NCBI GenBank assembly: GCA_031285105.1
Contig: JAITWV010000169.1
Coordinates: forward strand, 1 to 25,197
Reading direction: 5' to 3'
From: Streptococcaceae bacterium
GTDB lineage: Bacteria > Bacillota > Bacilli > Lactobacillales > Streptococcaceae
Length of the DNA: 25,197 nucleotides
Shown here: positions 2,923-9,082 of the stretch, piece after piece
How the letters are laid out: each line of letters begins with the position of its first letter
Position numbering within the stretch: position 1 is the stretch's first letter
Notes under the pieces: model-generated
Told to the model about the DNA's origin: nothing
The model's database searches: none
The model's input: only the letters and a program-made list of their open reading frames with translations
Made by a program: the position numbers and the translations under genes

Positions 2923-3063
2923 ATGCTAACTGAAATCATTAAAATATTTCTTGAAACGTGGGGTATTACAATAATCATTGCTGCAATAGCTCTTGTGATG
3001 GTATATGTAATAAAAAAATCGTTTAAAAAACAGGAGGGAGACGATGGCGAAAAAATTGAGTGA
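2923..3063 (+). CDS. small single-TM protein (46 aa), not in ORF track
   Basis: Sequence MLTEIIKIFLETWGITIIIAAIALVMVYVIKKSFKKQEGDDGEKIE. Its 3' end contains the SD of the next gene. Confidence 0.65.
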   Translation: MLTEIIKIFLETWGITIIIAAIALVMVYVIKKSFKKQEGDDGEKIE

Positions 3064-3442
3064 AATTGATCTAAAAAATTTGGAAGATCAATTTCGCAAT
3101 AAAAAAATTTGGAAAAATAATTTAGCTAGAATCGAGTTTTTTATACGAAAAAAAAATCCTGAAGCATCCGAAAATGAGATAAAAAAAATAATTGGAATGC
3201 ATAGTGGATTTGCATATTACACTAGACTTGTAAAAAATATCGAAGAAGCGTATGAAGAACTGCCTATGGATTTGAAAAAAATAGTTGATAAGTATTTTTG
3301 GGGTGAGTACCACTATTTGAACTGGAAAGAAATAGCAGACGTAGAAATCATTTCAGAATCAACTTCTTACAAACGTAGACGATATCCAATACTCGAAAAA
3401 CTAGCATACAAGAAAGGCGAGTTGTACGATGAGAATCACTAG
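3044..3442 (+). CDS. RinA/ArpU-like late transcriptional activator
   Basis: 132 aa with a sigma region-4-like C-terminal HTH (LPMDLKKIVDKYFW...WKEIADVEIISESTSYKRRRYPILEK), at the canonical position just before the packaging genes. Confidence 0.75.
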   Translation: MAKKLSEIDLKNLEDQFRNKKIWKNNLARIEFFIRKKNPEASENEIKKIIGMHSGFAYYTRLVKNIEEAYEELPMDLKKIVDKYFWGEYHYLNWKEIADVEIISESTSYKRRRYPILEKLAYKKGELYDENH

Positions 3443-3767
3443 ACCATGTAGGCAACCGCTCTGTAGCGACTTGACTGAAAAAACATACTGCGAAAATCAT
3501 GATGCGCACGATACTAGACACCGAAAAAAGCAGTATAACCAGCGGTGGCGACAAGAAAGCAAGCTGTTTTTGCTGCACAATCCATTGTGTGCCGATCCCT
3601 TTGGTTTACATGCTGCTGCAGGTGTCAGAGTGGTTGCGCGTGAGGTAGACCACAAAACCCCATGGAAAGGCAATACGCGGCTATTTTGGGAGCGGTCAAA
3701 CTGGCAATCATTATGCGAAAGCTGCCATTCAAAAAAGACAGCAAAATTTGACCGTCTGGAATACTAA
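3429..3767 (+). CDS. HNH endonuclease, HK97 gp74-like packaging accessory
   Basis: N-terminal PCRQPLC...YCENH zinc motif; YNQRWRQES; EVDHKTP...NWQSLCESCHSKKT HNH core; located upstream of terS. Confidence 0.92.
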   Translation: MRITRPCRQPLCSDLTEKTYCENHDAHDTRHRKKQYNQRWRQESKLFLLHNPLCADPFGLHAAAGVRVVAREVDHKTPWKGNTRLFWERSNWQSLCESCHSKKTAKFDRLEY

Positions 3768-3788
3768 TATATAGTGTTTGAAAACAGC

Positions 3789-3820
3789 AAAAAAACAAGG
3801 TCAACCGCCTTGTTTTTTTT
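3789..3820. terminator. bidirectional intrinsic terminator
   Basis: A7-CAAGG / loop TCAACCG / CCTTG-T8, lying between the convergent HNH gene (+) and the 412-aa gene (-). Confidence 0.85.
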
Positions 3821-3836
3821 GGCTTATATAATGCTG

Positions 3837-5075
3837 TTAAAAAAATGCCATTTGCTTGTCTTTTTTGCGTGTATAAATTTTGTGCTCTTTCGTTTGGTCC
3901 TGGTATTCTTTTTTAGTGATTTCACCAGCCCAATATTTTTCTAATAAAGCAACTTCAGGGCTTTTCACTTGTGGCGCTGGTTCGGTGGGTTTGGGCGGTT
4001 CTGGTTCGCCTGCAGGTGCAGAAAAATCAAATTTTTTTCTTTTTCTCTCTAAAAATTTTTCGTCGCTGATCCATTCTATTTCAATTTCATTGCTCCATTG
4101 TTTTTTGGTGATTTTTTTAATGCCTAAACTTTCCAAAGTCACAAGGTCATTTGTTGAAAAATTAAACTTTTTAGCGATGATTTCCTTTCCTGCATCGTCC
4201 TTTTTAATCATGATTTGATCAGCGTAACAAATATTTCTAGACTCTGGATCAAATGGGATTGCCTTCATGCTTTTTTGCGTCCGGCTTAAAATATAATAAG
4301 CCAATTTATTTTCAGGGTTGCGGTAAATTTTACCAACTTCAAAGAGGCCGCCAGCGTCAATGCTTTTATCAATTTCAGATTTTAAATGATCCGGGATAGG
4401 TAGCGCATCCGCATCAAGTTCTAAAAATTTAATTGTTTTAATAACGGCGTTCCTTGTTAGTTGACGGCCCCAGCACTTGCCACGAGGAGACCAGCGGAAA
4501 CCATTCTTTTTTATTTCTTGAATTTCTTCACGCTCGGGCTTTTCATCGTGATAGATTTCAATATAGCCGGGTGCATTCGCATCTTGTTTGATGCGTGTAT
4601 AGTTATATTTGATAGTGATGCCCTTTTCATCAAATCGGAACTCAGTACAAAACTTTTTTTGTTCGTTTAAAAATTCTTGATGCGCATCTGTTAATTTTTC
4701 AAGTTCTTTTTTGGTATTAGTAAAAAAATTATCGCGTTTGGTTTCGTGATCGATTGCGTAATTTTGCGCTGCATTTTGAACCTTTTCAAATTTCCTTGCT
4801 GGAAATTTTGCAGGACCAGCAACCGCCGCGCCGGGCATTGAATAAGCTTTCAGTTGAAAATTGAGAAAATAAGTCTTGTTTAAGTCGCTAAAAGCTAAAA
4901 AACGTTGATCAAGATAGTTGCGTTGTTTTTCGTTGTAAAATTCTTGTGGTGAAAAATGGTCAAAAAACAGGCGATCAAGAAAATAAAGTTGATTTTCAAA
5001 ATATGCCTCATCTTTTTGAAACATGCGATTATTATTCGTTGCCATCAAGGCCATTAAATCCATTTTATCTAACAT
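3837..5075 (-). CDS. multidomain hypothetical protein (412 aa); motifs resemble DUF3560-associated/polyvalent-type mobile-element proteins
   Basis: The protein is read from the reverse complement (CAT at 5088-5090 and 5073-5075, TTA at 3837-3839), so the track's + label is wrong. SD GGAGG 8 nt before ATG 5075 favours MLDK as the start. Motifs AGPAKFPARK, KKNGFRWSPRGKCW and FEVGKIY...SRTQKS. Confidence 0.85.
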   Translation of the reverse strand: MLDKMDLMALMATNNNRMFQKDEAYFENQLYFLDRLFFDHFSPQEFYNEKQRNYLDQRFLAFSDLNKTYFLNFQLKAYSMPGAAVAGPAKFPARKFEKVQNAAQNYAIDHETKRDNFFTNTKKELEKLTDAHQEFLNEQKKFCTEFRFDEKGITIKYNYTRIKQDANAPGYIEIYHDEKPEREEIQEIKKNGFRWSPRGKCWGRQLTRNAVIKTIKFLELDADALPIPDHLKSEIDKSIDAGGLFEVGKIYRNPENKLAYYILSRTQKSMKAIPFDPESRNICYADQIMIKKDDAGKEIIAKKFNFSTNDLVTLESLGIKKITKKQWSNEIEIEWISDEKFLERKRKKFDFSAPAGEPEPPKPTEPAPQVKSPEVALLEKYWAGEITKKEYQDQTKEHKIYTRKKDKQMAFF

Positions 5076-5096
5076 TTTCTTATCCTCCATTTTTTA

Positions 5097-5609
5097 TTAT
5101 GCTGCAGGTTGTAACGCCTGCAGCTGGTTAAATTCATTAATTGCGAATTGCATATAATGCGTTGGGTCGGTATCGCTTGGGATCATTTCATAATTGACGG
5201 CGGCGGTAATTAATTTTTGCATCAAGTCAAAAGCTGCTTCAATCGTTTCAACTTTTGGCGCTTCAGCTCGCACGCTTTCAACTTCAAGCGGGTCAAGATG
5301 CAATGATCCAATTTCAACAACTTGATAGTAGCAGCGACCGAACGGCCCGAGCATGAAGAATAGTTCGGATCCTTTTGAATAGGTGCCAGCGCTAAAAGCT
5401 TTCTTTTGTGACATGTAAACGCCACCAGCTGGCAAGAGTATCAAGTTAGCGCCACCGTATGCCTTGCCTGAAGCGTAAGAAGTTGGGTAACCCTTTTCTA
5501 AAATATCCAGGTAAACGGCTTCAATACACAAGTCTTTCATCTGATTCATTGCGATGCGCTTAACTTTTGGCGTGGTGTCTAATGTGGTTTGTAATTGTTG
5601 TTTTTTCAT
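5097..5609 (-). CDS. hypothetical protein (170 aa)
   Basis: SD GGAGG 9 nt before ATG 5609 (MKKQQLQTT). Ends a short distance upstream of the next gene's SD, an operon-like spacing. Confidence 0.8.
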   Translation of the reverse strand: MKKQQLQTTLDTTPKVKRIAMNQMKDLCIEAVYLDILEKGYPTSYASGKAYGGANLILLPAGGVYMSQKKAFSAGTYSKGSELFFMLGPFGRCYYQVVEIGSLHLDPLEVESVRAEAPKVETIEAAFDLMQKLITAAVNYEMIPSDTDPTHYMQFAINEFNQLQALQPAA

Positions 5610-5662
5610 GATTTTCAACCTCCATTTTTAAAGCCTTTTTAGTAACGAGCAACTAGAAAACG

Positions 5663-5671
5663 TGGTATAAT
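5663..5671 (+). promoter_or_regulatory. extended -10 promoter (TGGTATAAT) for antisense RNA
   Basis: Perfect TGnTATAAT pointing into the 3' end of the minus-strand small ORF. No good -35 seen. Confidence 0.7.
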
Positions 5672-5677
5672 AAACAC

Positions 5678-5806
5678 AATAGGAAGGGGGGCGAACCCCC
5701 ACTATTAAGCGAACAATTTGGATAAGATCCAAGCAATTGATGCTTCAAGTAAAGCCGTTAGCATTAATTGACCTAAAGCGATGAGTTTGAGCCTCGTCGC
5801 TTTTTT
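5678..5806 (+). ncRNA. putative ~130-nt antisense RNA (type I antitoxin-like)
   Basis: Starts just after the extended -10, has a 5' hairpin GGGGG-CGAA-CCCCC (5687-5700), and ends in a terminator at 5775-5806. Fully complementary to the 3' part of ORF 5705..5854. Confidence 0.55.
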
Positions 5807-5854
5807 GCGTGCCTCCTTTCGTTTTTTCGCTTTTCCTATTCGTGTTTCCTGCAT
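5705..5854 (-). CDS. small basic/hydrophobic peptide (49 aa), type I toxin-like, not in ORF track
   Basis: SD AAGGGAGGTG 8 nt upstream of ATG 5854. Sequence MQETRIGKAKKRKEARKKATRLKLIALGQLMLTALLEASIAWILSKLFA: Lys/Arg-rich N-terminus and a C-terminal TM-length helix. Confidence 0.75.
   Translation of the reverse strand: MQETRIGKAKKRKEARKKATRLKLIALGQLMLTALLEASIAWILSKLFA
5775..5806 (+). terminator. intrinsic terminator of the putative antisense RNA
   Basis: 11-bp stem AAAGCGATGAG / CTCGTCGCTTT (one G-U pair), 7-nt loop, T6 tract at 5801-5806. Confidence 0.65.
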
Positions 5855-5882
5855 GTGCATCACCTCCCTTCTTTTCGTCCAC

Positions 5883-5912
5883 AGTTTAAAACCTATTTAG
5901 CTAAATTGTAAA
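5883..5912 (-). promoter_or_regulatory. candidate sigmaA promoter of the minus-strand cassette, with palindromic operator
   Basis: -35 TTTACA (5912-5907), 18-bp spacer, -10 TAAACT (5888-5883). Perfect 12-bp palindrome ATTTAGCTAAAT at 5895-5906 in the spacer. Confidence 0.4.
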
Positions 5913-5999
5913 AGCAAAACTAAAACAACTTTTTAAAACGTTTACATTTTTTGTTGCGCTATATAGATATAAAGTTATTAAGAATTTCTTAAGATGATT

Positions 6000-6480
6000 T
6001 CAACGAACCGACAACAAGACACCAAAGGTATAGACCTATACACGATGAACGGTAACGCTTGCAGCATGAAAGCAAGCGAACCAATACGCCGCCCAAAAGG
6101 CTTGAAGCGATGCAAGCAATCAAGCAAGGCGAACGAACACGCACCGCAGGCAGCGGGTGGCGTGTGACGTTTGAACGAATCGAAAAGCAATTTGAAAATT
6201 AAAAATTAAAATTTAAAATTGATTTTCAAAATTGAAAAAATGATTGATTTTAAAGGCTATATATTAGTGATGCGCAAGCCTTGCATCTGCATCAAGCGCC
6301 GGCATGAAAGCACACGAACCAACCAGCGACCAACGCGGGCACAGGATCCCAAGCCATTAACGCGCCGGCAAGGCACCAGCAGCGACACGACCGCGCAAGC
6401 ACTGGTAGCAGCTGCCAAGCATCAAGGCGCACGCAATGGATGCAAGCAAATCAAAATAAATTAAAACTGCTGCAAAAAAA
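6000..6480. repeat. noncoding GC-rich/T-poor blocks with direct and inverted repeats flanking an A-tract core
   Basis: 21-bp direct repeat at 6064-6084 / 6302-6322 (19/21 identical); GATGCAAGCAA(A)TCAA at 6109-6123 / 6439-6454; AT-rich core at 6190-6255. Confidence 0.6.
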
Positions 6481-6543
6481 ACACTTAAAAGCGCCCAAAA
6501 ATCACGCAAAAAAGAAAATAAATTGAGTCACTCTATTTATTTC

Positions 6544-6630
6544 ATACCCCCACCCTCTAAATGTTATTTAATACCCATCTTCACAGAACGCCCCCCTCAA
6601 CAAAACACAAAACTCCCTTTTTGAAAAATC
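6544..6630. other. putative cos/packaging initiation region
   Basis: TACCCCCACCC...CAGAACGCCCCCCTC...AAAACTCCCTTTTTGAAAA just upstream of terS resembles the pattern I recognise at cos sites of P27-TerS/HNH Firmicute phages. The exact cut site is not determinable here. Confidence 0.55.
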
Positions 6631-6866
6631 AAAAATGAAAACAAAAGGTTGATTTAACAACGTTTGTTATAGCGAAAGTCTATTTTAACCACTCAATTCA
6701 CCCCCATTCTATATGACAGGAAAAACCACAATGTTATTTAATTGTCAATGGATTTTTTGCAACTAAATAAAATTGTGCTGAGAATTGTATATTTCAGTAC
6801 CCTAAATTTGAAATATCCTATGGGTAACATAACTAAGCGGCAATCGCATCCAAGGAGGTGTGAGTC

Positions 6867-7343
6867 ATGGGAGGTAGAAAAGCACAACCAACTGACTTGT
6901 TACTAGCTAAAGGAAAGAAGCATTTAACGAAAGAAGAAATTCAAGCTCGTAAAAATTCTGAAATCAAAATGCCAAAAATTAGTAAAGTAACAAACCCAAG
7001 CTATTTGAGCAGAAAACAAAAATTAAAATTTTCAACTATTTCAAAACAACTGATAGATTTAGATATTTTTGCACAACTAGATAGAGATCATTTGGCGATG
7101 TACGTTATCGCTCATGAGAAATATTTAGAAGCAACAAAGGCATTAGATGAGTTGGATATTATTAAAGACTTAGGCAATTACACCAAAATTCAGATTATCC
7201 AGGATAAGTTCTTTAAGCAGTGTAAAGGGTTAGCAAGTGATTTAGGGTTAAACATTACCTCACGATGCAAGCTTGTAATTCCTAAACCGCTAGAAAATCC
7301 GAATAAGTCTGAAGAAGAAGAATTGTTTGGAGACGATTTGTAA
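6867..7343 (+). CDS. terS: terminase small subunit, P27 family
   Basis: MGGRKAQP...GKKHLTKEEI N-terminus, LGLNITSRCKL C-terminal motif, SD AAGGAGGTG, TAATG overlap with terL. Confidence 0.92.
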   Translation: MGGRKAQPTDLLLAKGKKHLTKEEIQARKNSEIKMPKISKVTNPSYLSRKQKLKFSTISKQLIDLDIFAQLDRDHLAMYVIAHEKYLEATKALDELDIIKDLGNYTKIQIIQDKFFKQCKGLASDLGLNITSRCKLVIPKPLENPNKSEEEELFGDDL

Positions 7344-9082
7344 TGGTTCAACTAGAAACAGCCAAAGTCTTTGAAATGCGAGATGTTGTCTTAGGTTACT
7401 GTGATGACATTTTAGACGGAACAATTAACGCTGGTGTAAAAGCAAAACAAGCCATTAAACGCTTTTTGAATGATTATGAAAAGTCACTATCTGATGAAAG
7501 TTATCCATATTATATGGACTGGGGAGAACTATACAGGTTTGAAAGATGGTCAAATATGTTCCGGCATACAAAAGGAGTATTAGTTGGCCAAAGAATAAAA
7601 CTTGTTCCTTTCCAATTATGGGTAGCAGGTAATGTCATTGCCTTTAAGAAAAAAGATGATGATACCAGAAGATACGATGAAGCATACATTCAAATCGGAC
7701 GTAAAAATGCGAAGTCTCAATTAATTGCAACAATTGCCTCATATATTGCCTTTTTATCTAAAGAAATAGAAGAAATATACGTTTCGTGCTGGTCAAAGGA
7801 TCAATCAAAACTGGTCTATCAAGAAGTGATCAATCAAGTTAGAAGCGTAAAGATTTTAAAAAATAAATGGAAAGACACGTATTCCACATTCACGGTTCAT
7901 AAAAATGGTTCTATCATTAAGCCGTTATCAAGAGAAGCCAAAAAGACTGGAGAAGGAACGAATCCTTCCGTTGCGATTTTGGATGAGTATAAGGACAACC
8001 AAACGGATGAATTATACGAAGTGCAAAAAACCGGAATGATGGCACGTAAAAACCCACTGTTAATGATTATCACTACAGCTGGGCAATATTTATCTTATCC
8101 ATGCTACCAAACGTATTTAGCTGCAAGTCGCATTCTTGATCCTGAACTAGATGATGAAGATGAAAACATGTTTGTAGCCATATGGGAAGTGGACAAAGGC
8201 GATGACATTAAAGATGAAAAAAACTTCATTAAAGCAAATCCGATTTTGGCCACTTATGAAAAAGGGTTGGAAGCCTTAAGAAGATACTTACGTAAAGCCA
8301 TTTTGCAGCCTGAAAAAATGCGTGGATTCATGACGAAAAATCTAAACATGTGGGTGGATATGGCTCGTGAAGGTTTTATGAACATGAATAAGTGGAATCA
8401 AAGCATGTTTGAGTCAGACAAACCATTCATTGAAATTTTAAAGGAGTTAGTGATTGACGGATGGAAAATCTTCATTGGTGCCGACCTTTCAATGACGACA
8501 GACTTAACTTCTTTAGGCATTGTAGCGGTAAAAGATAAGAAGTATCAAGTATTCCAACACTCATTCATTCCTGAAGAACGTTTTGAAGAAAGAATGAACA
8601 CAGATAAAGTACGGTTTGATTTATGGAAAGAAGAAGGCTATTTGACGGTAACGCCAGGTAGCACGGTGGATTATTTCTACATTCTTAAATTCATTGAAGA
8701 CATTTTCAAAGTTATTCCGGTACGTGAATTTATTTATGACAAGATGAATGCGACTATGCTTGCTTCAGCTGTCACAAAGTTAGGGATTCCAGCCATTGAA
8801 ATGCCACAAAATTACTCACACTTATCTCTTCCTACCAAGGAATTTAGAGATTGTGTCTATAACGGACTGCTCACCTGGTTGAAGGATAGTCTACTGAAAT
8901 GGGCTATAGGTAATGCAGTCTTAAAAACGGATGAGTATGAAAATATTCAATTAAGCAAACGCATCAGTCGTGAACGAATCGACCCGGCCGCTGCAGTAAT
9001 TTTCGCTTTTGCACGTGCAATGGTGGTGGATCAAAACCTAGATATTAACGAAAGAATACTAAGTGAAGGGTTTGGTTTTTAA
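7343..9082 (+). CDS. terL: terminase large subunit (Terminase_1, cos-type)
   Basis: Walker A GRKNAKS, Walker B AILDEY, nuclease GADLSMTTDLTS and RIDPAAA; 579 aa. Confidence 0.96.
   Translation: MVQLETAKVFEMRDVVLGYCDDILDGTINAGVKAKQAIKRFLNDYEKSLSDESYPYYMDWGELYRFERWSNMFRHTKGVLVGQRIKLVPFQLWVAGNVIAFKKKDDDTRRYDEAYIQIGRKNAKSQLIATIASYIAFLSKEIEEIYVSCWSKDQSKLVYQEVINQVRSVKILKNKWKDTYSTFTVHKNGSIIKPLSREAKKTGEGTNPSVAILDEYKDNQTDELYEVQKTGMMARKNPLLMIITTAGQYLSYPCYQTYLAASRILDPELDDEDENMFVAIWEVDKGDDIKDEKNFIKANPILATYEKGLEALRRYLRKAILQPEKMRGFMTKNLNMWVDMAREGFMNMNKWNQSMFESDKPFIEILKELVIDGWKIFIGADLSMTTDLTSLGIVAVKDKKYQVFQHSFIPEERFEERMNTDKVRFDLWKEEGYLTVTPGSTVDYFYILKFIEDIFKVIPVREFIYDKMNATMLASAVTKLGIPAIEMPQNYSHLSLPTKEFRDCVYNGLLTWLKDSLLKWAIGNAVLKTDEYENIQLSKRISRERIDPAAAVIFAFARAMVVDQNLDINERILSEGFGF

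Follow-up and report, generated by a model that had tools for sequence, protein, structure and literature searches.

An antisense gene cassette with relatives of plasmid-establishment proteins beside the predicted cos site of a termite-gut phage

We analyzed contig JAITWV010000169.1, from a metagenome-assembled genome (MAG) of a Streptococcaceae bacterium (assembly GCA_031285105.1). The window is the whole contig (25,197 bp); it is one of 433 contigs in this MAG, whose completeness is 83%. As judged from Pfam and PHROG gene families, the contig is a segment of a phage or prophage. Between its HNH endonuclease gene and terS, which encodes the small terminase, three minus-strand genes for proteins of 49, 170, and 412 amino acids (aa) form a cassette; all of the genes with family support outside this cassette are on the plus strand. 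Sequence comparisons indicate that the two larger proteins, which are the core of the cassette, are homologous to products of genes that conjugative plasmids use for establishment (post-entry, anti-restriction), and that the cassette was inserted next to the predicted cohesive-end site (cos) of the phage. Tentatively, the best single explanation is that the cassette is cargo for counter-defense or establishment.

Results

The three genes and their signals

The features of the region are listed in Table 1. All three of the genes that were originally predicted are present. For each of them, we used the ATG start that is closest to the Shine-Dalgarno (SD) sequence (at 5075 for the 412-aa protein, 5609 for the 170-aa protein, and 5854 for the 49-aa peptide). 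The longer versions in the list of open reading frames (ORFs) start within the SD sequence or at TTG or GTG codons. The two larger genes were said to share an 11-nt SD context, and they do: AAAAATGGAGG occurs exactly, on the minus strand, at just two places in the window (5084-5094 and 5619-5629), with the ATG codons 8-9 nt further on. Because only 21 nt lie between the 170-aa and 412-aa genes, we consider them to be a coupled pair, and because homologues of both exist elsewhere, we consider both genes to be real. The bidirectional terminator beyond the 412-aa gene is also as described, with a hairpin between A7 and T8.

The claim that the cassette is a self-contained operon stands for the terminator and for the coupled pair, but may not hold for the 49-aa gene, which is parted from the 170-aa gene by a gap of 95 nt and a GC hairpin (GGGGG-loop-CCCCC). 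On the opposite strand, this gap holds a perfect extended -10 element (TGGTATAAT, 5663-5671). Given the hairpin, the gap, and the -10 element, the cassette is better termed a peptide/antisense-RNA module, then a two-gene unit. The promoter that was proposed for the cassette fared worse. It matches the consensus at 9 of 12 positions, and the region has 11 matches of this quality, versus 8.6 +/- 2.8 in shuffled sequences.

The GC content at third codon positions (GC3) is 0.42 in the 170-aa gene and 0.38 in the 49-aa gene, versus 0.25-0.34 in most of the backbone genes. None of the three proteins has a match in NCBIfam.

Table 1. Coordinates of features in and around the cassette.
Feature	Position	Strand	Evidence or description
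ArpU/RinA-like late transcriptional regulator, backbone gene 5' of HNH	3044..3442	+	phrog_36 transcriptional regulator, E 4e-7
HNH endonuclease of the packaging machinery	3429..3767	+	Pfam HNH, E 3e-8; phrog_144, E 1.5e-21
Bidirectional intrinsic terminator, ending the HNH transcript and the cassette	3789..3820	both	hairpin between A7 and T8; terminator scan
412-aa protein, DUF3560-related	3837..5075	-	homologues, alignment, hhalign
170-aa divergent ArdC-N-like domain protein (single-stranded-DNA-binding, anti-restriction type) without zincin protease domain	5097..5609	-	hhalign, HMMER
Candidate antisense RNA of ~130 nt, convergent with the 3' half of the 49-aa gene	5663..5806	+	extended -10 TGGTATAAT at 5663-5671
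GC hairpin 3' of the 49-aa gene	5686..5700		terminator-like on -; 5' hairpin of antisense RNA on +
49-aa peptide gene, strong SD GGGAGG	5705..5854	-	translation
Candidate sigma-70 promoter of the cassette, TTTACA-18-TAAACT	5883..5912	-	9/12 consensus match
Non-coding element in the insertion, ~490 bp	5990..6480		two GC-rich (about 50%), T-poor blocks flanking an A/T core
Conserved C-rich box, cosQ-like position, right border of the insertion	6547..6562	+	unique in window; matches phi105 and G507 boxes
Predicted cohesive-end site cos	6588..6601		Gamma terminal 9-mer and same segment in G437 and G507, by homology
Small terminase terS (Terminase_4 / P27 type)	6867..7343	+	Pfam, E 1e-11; phrog_83, E 2e-33
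Large terminase terL	7343..9082	+	Pfam TerL_ATPase, TerL_nuclease

An insertion next to the predicted cos site

We located the likely cos site by comparison to related phages. In the records for phi105, Gamma, and PK5.1, there are 47-330 bp between the end of the HNH gene and the end of the record, and terS begins 19-63 bp in. At the right end of phi105, a C-rich box lies 25 nt ahead of the annotated cos. The window has a corresponding box, and about 27 nt past it, the segment at 6590-6623 aligns with the cohesive-end 9-mer of Gamma and the CTCAAC...TCCnTTTTT that follows. (The pairwise scores of these alignments are each modest, with z about 3.) The closest prophage relatives that we found, G437 and G507, are 54-56% identical in TerL (the large terminase), 43-48% in HNH, 43-45% in TerS, and 46-47% in the portal protein. 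Both have three cos-region boxes, in unchanged order, in an HNH-terS gap of ~250 bp. From the homology to the cos sites of phi105 and Gamma and the order of the boxes in G437 and G507, we predict that cos is at about 6588-6600.

The HNH-terS gap is 3,099 bp in this phage. It is 109-390 bp in phages Gamma, PK5.1, and phi105. Of 14 prophage relatives, eleven have a gap of 107-533 bp and three have one of 1.6-2.7 kb. Since the gap is short in most relatives, and since the cos-region boxes reappear at 6547-6623, we read the block from 3768 to 6540 as a horizontally acquired accessory insertion of ~2.8 kb, with HNH as its left border. Apart from the terminator and the three genes, it consists of ~630 bp of non-coding DNA. 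Neither the region nor the insertion gave a near or distant DNA match when compared to phages and plasmids, and the insertion has no close relatives in any collection that we searched. In agreement with the original prediction, we found no integrase, no transposase, and no convincing flanking repeats in or around it.

Two smaller observations concern its borders. ACTAATATATAG and its complement form a perfect inverted repeat of 12 nt, with one copy at 3763-3774, in the region of the HNH stop codon, and the other at 6257-6268, in the A/T core of the non-coding element. The repeat could be left over from the insertion event or could have arisen by chance in AT-rich DNA. Also, a promoter-like site (TTCAAA-17-TACAAT, 6784-6812, minus strand) lies between cos and terS and is aimed leftward over cos. 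If it is real, it could reach the insertion only once the cohesive ends have joined.

The three longer gaps contain a GNAT acetyltransferase with an antisense ORF, RecU with unknowns, and an antisense set of three unknown ORFs. None of this cargo is related to genes in the window. The original prediction had suggested comparing this interval in related phages for variable cargo, and variable cargo is what we found. Because these three relatives hold unrelated genes, we view the HNH-terS gap as an occasional cargo site whose content is heterogeneous. In a distant TerL relative (L076 1135-3217, in G1123:C38), the 2.7-kb gap has three antisense ORFs (347, 73, and 167 aa), with no Pfam or PADLOC assignment for any of them. 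This is a second antisense cassette at the HNH-terS site, and it is unrelated to the one in the window.

The position and orientation of the cassette are also what one might expect of a moron that is transcribed from the prophage and helps the lysogen, either by excluding or aborting phages and plasmids or by type I toxin-antitoxin (TA) stabilization, and that is silenced by convergent transcription during lytic growth. The cassette is an antisense unit with its own terminator, located where the early/middle operon has ended and the late operon is still to come; it is missing from the 11 short-gapped prophages and from the three phages; and GC3 is raised in two of its genes. Autonomous opposite-strand units that are close to the right cohesive end, and that vary between relatives, are familiar from temperate phages (lambda bor, the HK97 morons, and HicAB of phi105). 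The bor gene of lambda is antisense and adjoins cos. In phi105, which is related by its TerL, an antisense HicAB cassette (two TA genes) lies 1.5-2.2 kb from cos, close to the same end; Gamma has an antisense FosB. In staphylococcal prophages, antisense genes alternate between lysogenic and lytic expression (PMC11087260). Nevertheless, we think that a moron is rather unlikely. Typical morons serve the lysogen, but the families in this cassette belong to invading DNA: the known ArdC-N-like and DUF3560-like proteins come from the establishment regulons of invaders and not from systems that protect the host. PADLOC has no match for any of the three proteins, and the window contains neither an integrase nor a repressor. 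Also unlike typical morons, this insertion lies after HNH, within an HNH-cos gap that is normally 0.1-0.5 kb.

The 412-aa protein

The 412-aa protein seems to have two parts. Residues 1-220 form a DUF3560-related module, in which GPAKFP and GFRWSP..W.RQLT.NA are motifs. The extension at residues 225-412 is an orphan, with a proline-rich linker and a confidently predicted C-terminal helix, and we found no relatives for residues 222-412. (A weak FEVGKIY-type match between the C-terminal half and the N terminus of the homologue P0009, with E = 0.008, was set aside.) In an alignment of eight sequences, the module shares its architecture and 15 invariant positions with proteins of 265-572 aa; the conserved motifs of the family are FSP, GPAKFP, and KxNGFRWxP..W.RQLTxN.

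Full-length relatives of the module were found by tblastn in Bacillus plasmids of the pLS20 family, and profile searches matched proteins from the plasmids pLS20 and NRS6107 (E = 1e-34 and 3e-29). Comparing the 412-aa family to the pLS20-family plasmid protein with hhalign gave a probability of 99.2% (E = 2.8e-19). In pLS20, the homologue (NC_015148.1, 47597-48391) is directly 3' of a GC-rich repeat, which has a 462-nt alignment with the DNA ahead of ardC. That repeat element is known as EGeRS1 (Val-Calvo et al. 2021, PMC8708921). Because the gene directly follows the EGeRS1 repeat, we assign the pLS20 homologue to operon C, next to the ardC operon (operon B). As for DUF3560, another homologue, P0006, scores 26.0 bits against the Pfam model, just under the cut-off of 27.2 bits. 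In the supplementary table in which Samuel et al. 2024 (PMC11541004) list leading-region families, one family with 1,913 members has DUF3560/YdbA in its annotation. Among structural neighbors in AFDB and BFVD, we found DUF3560, DUF4316, and LPD (large polyvalent protein-associated) proteins, and also polyvalent proteins with ArdC-N, ArdA, and M78 peptidase domains.

An AlphaFold2 (AF2) model from eight sequences is confident only at about residues 165-225 and 373-405. The sole confident element in the N-terminal half is predicted to be a small alpha/beta domain that bears the GFRW motif. Foldseek against the PDB found nothing significant for this fold. The top match from VIA-align was the C-terminal DNA-binding domain of T4 MotA (Z 6.6-7.1), which may be background of the tool; we treat it as a lead only. 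Sequence searches of the PDB with profiles of the 412-aa and 170-aa families gave nothing meaningful.

In other phages, homologues of the 412-aa protein are in several settings: among the first genes after cI/cro in one prophage, and beside ERF, SSB, and a nuclease in another. In L009 (7331-10036), a homologue is part of a seven-gene opposite-strand islet between the portal/minor-head genes and other head genes, which shows that the 412-aa family also travels in antisense islets elsewhere.

These neighborhoods bear on another explanation, which is that the cassette aids replication, recombination, or the handling of cos ends instead of countering defenses. We consider this decidedly improbable. 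It would account for the company that 412-aa homologues keep (SSB, ERF, RecT, and nucleases with the metallo-beta-lactamase fold), for a PHROG match that is labelled 'primase', for the ArdC-N fold that we propose below for the 170-aa protein, and for the RecU gene at the HNH-terS site of one relative. But every relative that we examined can dispense with the cassette, which is antisense and insulated from the replication operon, and the plasmid homologues are in establishment operons, not replication operons.

The 170-aa protein

A word-based search with the 170-aa protein returned only itself. An exhaustive HMMER search of 1.8 billion cluster representatives gave one real homologue, P0012, which is 48% identical and is also from a termite gut. 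(The third listed match is a repeat protein and is not meaningful.) By eye, we spotted the pattern of the ArdC-N domain in the alignment, and we then tested it with hhalign. (ArdC-N is a fold that binds single-stranded DNA.) The 170-aa family matched ArdC of pLS20 alone with E = 2.5e-5, and it matched a profile of five pLS20-type ArdC-N sequences with a probability of 94.6% (E = 7e-8) and a score of 53.9 over 106 columns. As controls, 60 column-shuffled alignments scored 12.7 +/- 2.4 (maximum 25.4) and the reversed alignment scored 17. Within a small set of ORFs, HMMER also finds this relation, reciprocally.

The 170-aa protein resembles ArdC of the IncW plasmid R388/pSa in the signature of the N-terminal domain that binds single-stranded DNA, which includes the Y-x-G-x-N-x-x-L motif and the K-K-G/YY-x-V segments of the hhalign alignment. 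Unlike that ArdC, it has no metalloprotease domain and is so divergent as to be below the detection of the Pfam model. The C-terminal zincin-like metalloprotease domain (MPTase-PolyVal) had no match in the 170-aa protein; as a positive control, pLS20 ArdC was matched in the same Pfam search by ArdcN (54 bits) and by MPTase-PolyVal (E = 1e-36). With moderate-to-good confidence, we identify the 170-aa protein as a very divergent ArdC-N-like protein that lacks the protease.

Structural data did not add to this: a single-sequence AlphaFold model of the 170-aa protein was unusable (pLDDT 39), and look-ups in structure atlases gave only unnamed phage clusters. We found no further copies of the 412-aa or 170-aa genes in the MAG. 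The MAG does encode a canonical ArdcN-domain protein (G000:C92:189-434, at the start of a contig), which scores 44 bits and exceeds the Pfam cut-off; presumably, this gene is part of a conjugative element.

P0012, as the sole homologue of the 170-aa protein, is encoded in an unrelated pac-type prophage, on an opposite-strand island that immediately precedes terS/terL. Directly after it come RadC, an FtsK/SpoIIIE-like translocase, and a tyrosine integrase. This island of ~7 kb (L011 8103-15328, on a JGI termite-gut contig) looks like an integrative mobilizable element that has lodged in a prophage at the equivalent position. One could ask whether the cassette in the window is likewise a fragment of a conjugative or integrative element, one that was caught by illegitimate recombination and plays no role in the phage. 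The homologues in plasmids and in this integrase/FtsK island would fit such an origin, as would an insertion without close relatives. But the three ORFs are intact, with strong SD sequences and a terminator; space near cos is costly in a capsid of limited size; and there is no integrase, transposase, or convincing flanking repeat. An inert passenger is therefore very unlikely.

The 49-aa peptide and the non-coding DNA

The N terminus of the 49-aa peptide has a net charge of +8, and its C terminus is predicted to form a hydrophobic helix that is borderline as a transmembrane segment (the maximum hydropathy over 19 residues is 1.67). The peptide matched nothing in Pfam, NCBIfam, PHROG, or PADLOC, and these searches thus gave no homology to a known family of toxins. 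The candidate antisense RNA would span 5678-5806 and end in an 11-bp stem and a T-run (5775-5806). It has a predicted folding energy of -46.7 kcal/mol (z = -4.3), and none of 200 shuffled sequences was as stable. A hydrophobic peptide and a convergent RNA with its own promoter and terminator is the pattern of 3'-overlapping type I TA systems (TxpA/RatA and BsrG/SR4), and the arrangement here resembles a type I TA pair, which we describe as putative. The resemblance to a TA module would also fit a moron.

The non-coding element that accounts for much of the remaining DNA in the insertion is missing from the relatives. Its two GC-rich blocks share repeats of 21 and 11 nt. It has five copies of GCAAGC, versus 0.08 expected; in the entire window, this word occurs 20 times on the plus strand and 3 times on the minus strand. 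Rfam gave no match, even at a permissive threshold, and the predicted folds of the element are not unusual (z about -1.6 on either strand). We considered two possible identities for the element and rejected both. First, it could be a cluster of the host's Chi sites, but we saw no clustering of known Chi words in the blocks, and coding bias swamped a skew screen of the whole genome. Second, it could be an equivalent of EGeRS1, but the sequences are not similar, and the fold is not unusual.

The phage backbone

Among known phages, TerL is most similar to those of the cos phages phi105, Gamma/Fah, Geobacillus E2, and PK5.1 (46-48% identity by tblastn), and HNH is 40% identical to gp51 of phi105 and 43-48% identical to HNH from the prophage relatives. 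The genes on the plus strand are small early genes, SPFH, an ArpU-like regulator, HNH, terS, terL, and portal, and then a ClpP-type protease, an HK97-type capsid protein, the tape measure protein, Dit, and Tal. The phi105 activator and RinA of PK5.1 are encoded at the position that the ArpU-like regulator has here. The SPFH/Band-7 protein (347 aa; 1551-2594; Pfam E = 1e-20 and phrog_200) is encoded in the early region. Such genes are uncommon in phages.

It was originally stated that every gene outside the cassette is on the plus strand. This is correct for the genes with family support, but small minus-strand ORFs without such support reach the end of the contig (24968-25196). A 425-aa minus-strand ORF within the gene for Tal has no family match and is a shadow ORF.

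The only public sequencing run that contains the sequence is a termite-gut metagenome, and no RNA run contains it. In the reads of that single run (Logan contigs, ~5x), no termini, joints, or variants were seen at the contig level. TerL-based scans for the locus across viral and genome contigs gave no matches. Overall, this is a phi105/Gamma-like cos siphophage of a termite-gut Bacillota MAG.

Discussion

A tentative role in establishment

We favor a role in establishment because both of the coupled genes are in families of plasmid-establishment genes and because the cassette has an insulated, inward-reading layout beside cos. The families agree with the anti-defense or host-takeover content of the original prediction. 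We infer a mechanism as follows. Soon after the genome enters the cell, the 170-aa and 412-aa proteins would bind phage DNA, or intermediates of its replication or recombination, and this binding would blunt the host's restriction or help the entered DNA to settle. The antisense orientation and the terminator would insulate the unit from early and late transcription of the phage.

The geometry of the original prediction also holds up, with cos being placed by homology. The cassette is 0.7-2.8 kb inside the right end, which is the last to be packaged if packaging starts terS-first, as in lambda and HK97, and it reads away from that end. By analogy, a first-ejected leading region is plausible. 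For the last-packaged end to be expressed first, and to gain from this, packaging must have lambda-type polarity and the last DNA in must be the first out, both of which are established for lambda and SPP1.

A broader claim would be that establishment and counter-defense genes that read inward, and that are exchanged with conjugative elements, preferentially land in the HNH-cos gap, at the end that is packaged last and ejected first. Such genes would gain a head start over restriction, and the gap would be the counterpart, in cos siphophages, of the leading regions of plasmids. We consider this claim unlikely.

Several points weigh against a role in establishment, or against its timing. First, some family models miss the two proteins. 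Even when E values of up to 10 are allowed, the Pfam ArdcN model (PF08401) matches neither the 170-aa protein nor P0012. Also, a profile of ArdC-N sequences that are mainly of the type in integrative and conjugative elements (ICEs) of Lactobacillales, plus pLS20, gave a probability of just 1.9% for the 170-aa protein; the match was to the pLS20-type profile only, not to the ICE-type branch. The Pfam DUF3560 model (PF12083) does not match the 412-aa protein. Second, the 170-aa protein lacks the protease domain of ArdC, which is reportedly required for function in at least one case that was studied, and we know of no DUF3560-type protein with a demonstrated function. Third, the candidate promoter is not above chance, and given the internal hairpin that splits the supposed operon, the three genes may not form a single operon. 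Fourth, the cassette is absent from any RNA run, and termini are not visible in the contig-level reads.

Finally, there is the question of location. The original prediction had named the same cassette in unrelated contexts without a link to genome ends as evidence against it, and to some extent this is what we found: homologues of both genes are away from genome ends, and those contexts are the early operon after cro, a replication module, the inside of a head module, and the integrase/FtsK island. For the 412-aa protein, these include replication and recombination modules. In the relatives, the cargo is unrelated, and the HNH-terS site acts as a general, occasional hot spot for cargo. It can be argued that this is mainly a site where insertions are tolerated, after the early/middle terminator and before the late promoter, because the cargo of relatives is heterogeneous and the contexts of the homologues do not depend on genome ends; lambda bor and HicAB of phi105 are precedents.

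Comparison to known systems

The closest parallel is the establishment regulon of pLS20, whose genes are proposed to provide rapid, transient protection of newly entered DNA (PMC8708921). There, an ArdC-N protein and a DUF3560-related protein are encoded by neighboring operons (B and C), and in both systems the genes are behind long stretches of non-coding DNA that are richer in GC. However, pLS20 is transferred as single-stranded DNA, whereas a cos phage injects double-stranded DNA; the phage's ArdC-like protein has no zincin protease; its non-coding element has no sequence in common with EGeRS1, nor is its predicted structure unusual; and in the phage, both genes form one coupled unit.

Similarly, the leading regions of plasmids have genes at the end that is proposed to enter first, which are read from that end, and these genes include DUF3560/YdbA-type proteins, ArdC-type proteins, and small toxin-antitoxin loci (PMC11541004). 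The differences are that plasmids enter slowly, as single-stranded DNA, and use single-stranded promoters, whereas the genome of a cos siphophage enters whole within minutes, and that the 412-aa protein falls outside the Pfam membership of DUF3560.

The first-step-transfer genes of T5 and gene 0.3 of T7 (Ocr) also place counter-defense functions at the leading end of the genome, where they are read inward. In those phages, staged, slow, or transcription-driven entry makes the position decisive, and there is no relation in sequence to the cassette. We know of no mechanism for staged or slow entry in phi105-like phages.

Homologues of anti-restriction proteins, and morons, are already known from phages. 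What is new is that these particular plasmid-establishment families are paired in one cassette within the HNH-cos gap; the extreme variant of ArdC-N is also new.

Significance

If our explanation is correct, then families that conjugative plasmids use for establishment (ArdC-N and DUF3560/operon C of pLS20) are also used by a temperate-type cos phage, which would deploy them as a compact, exchangeable cassette beside the end of its genome. The ArdC-N domain family would gain a very divergent branch that lacks the protease, and the DUF3560-type family would gain a second and simpler genetic context in which its function can be tested. The HNH-cos gap, which is short, easily recognized, and sometimes loaded with cargo, is a concrete target for surveys.

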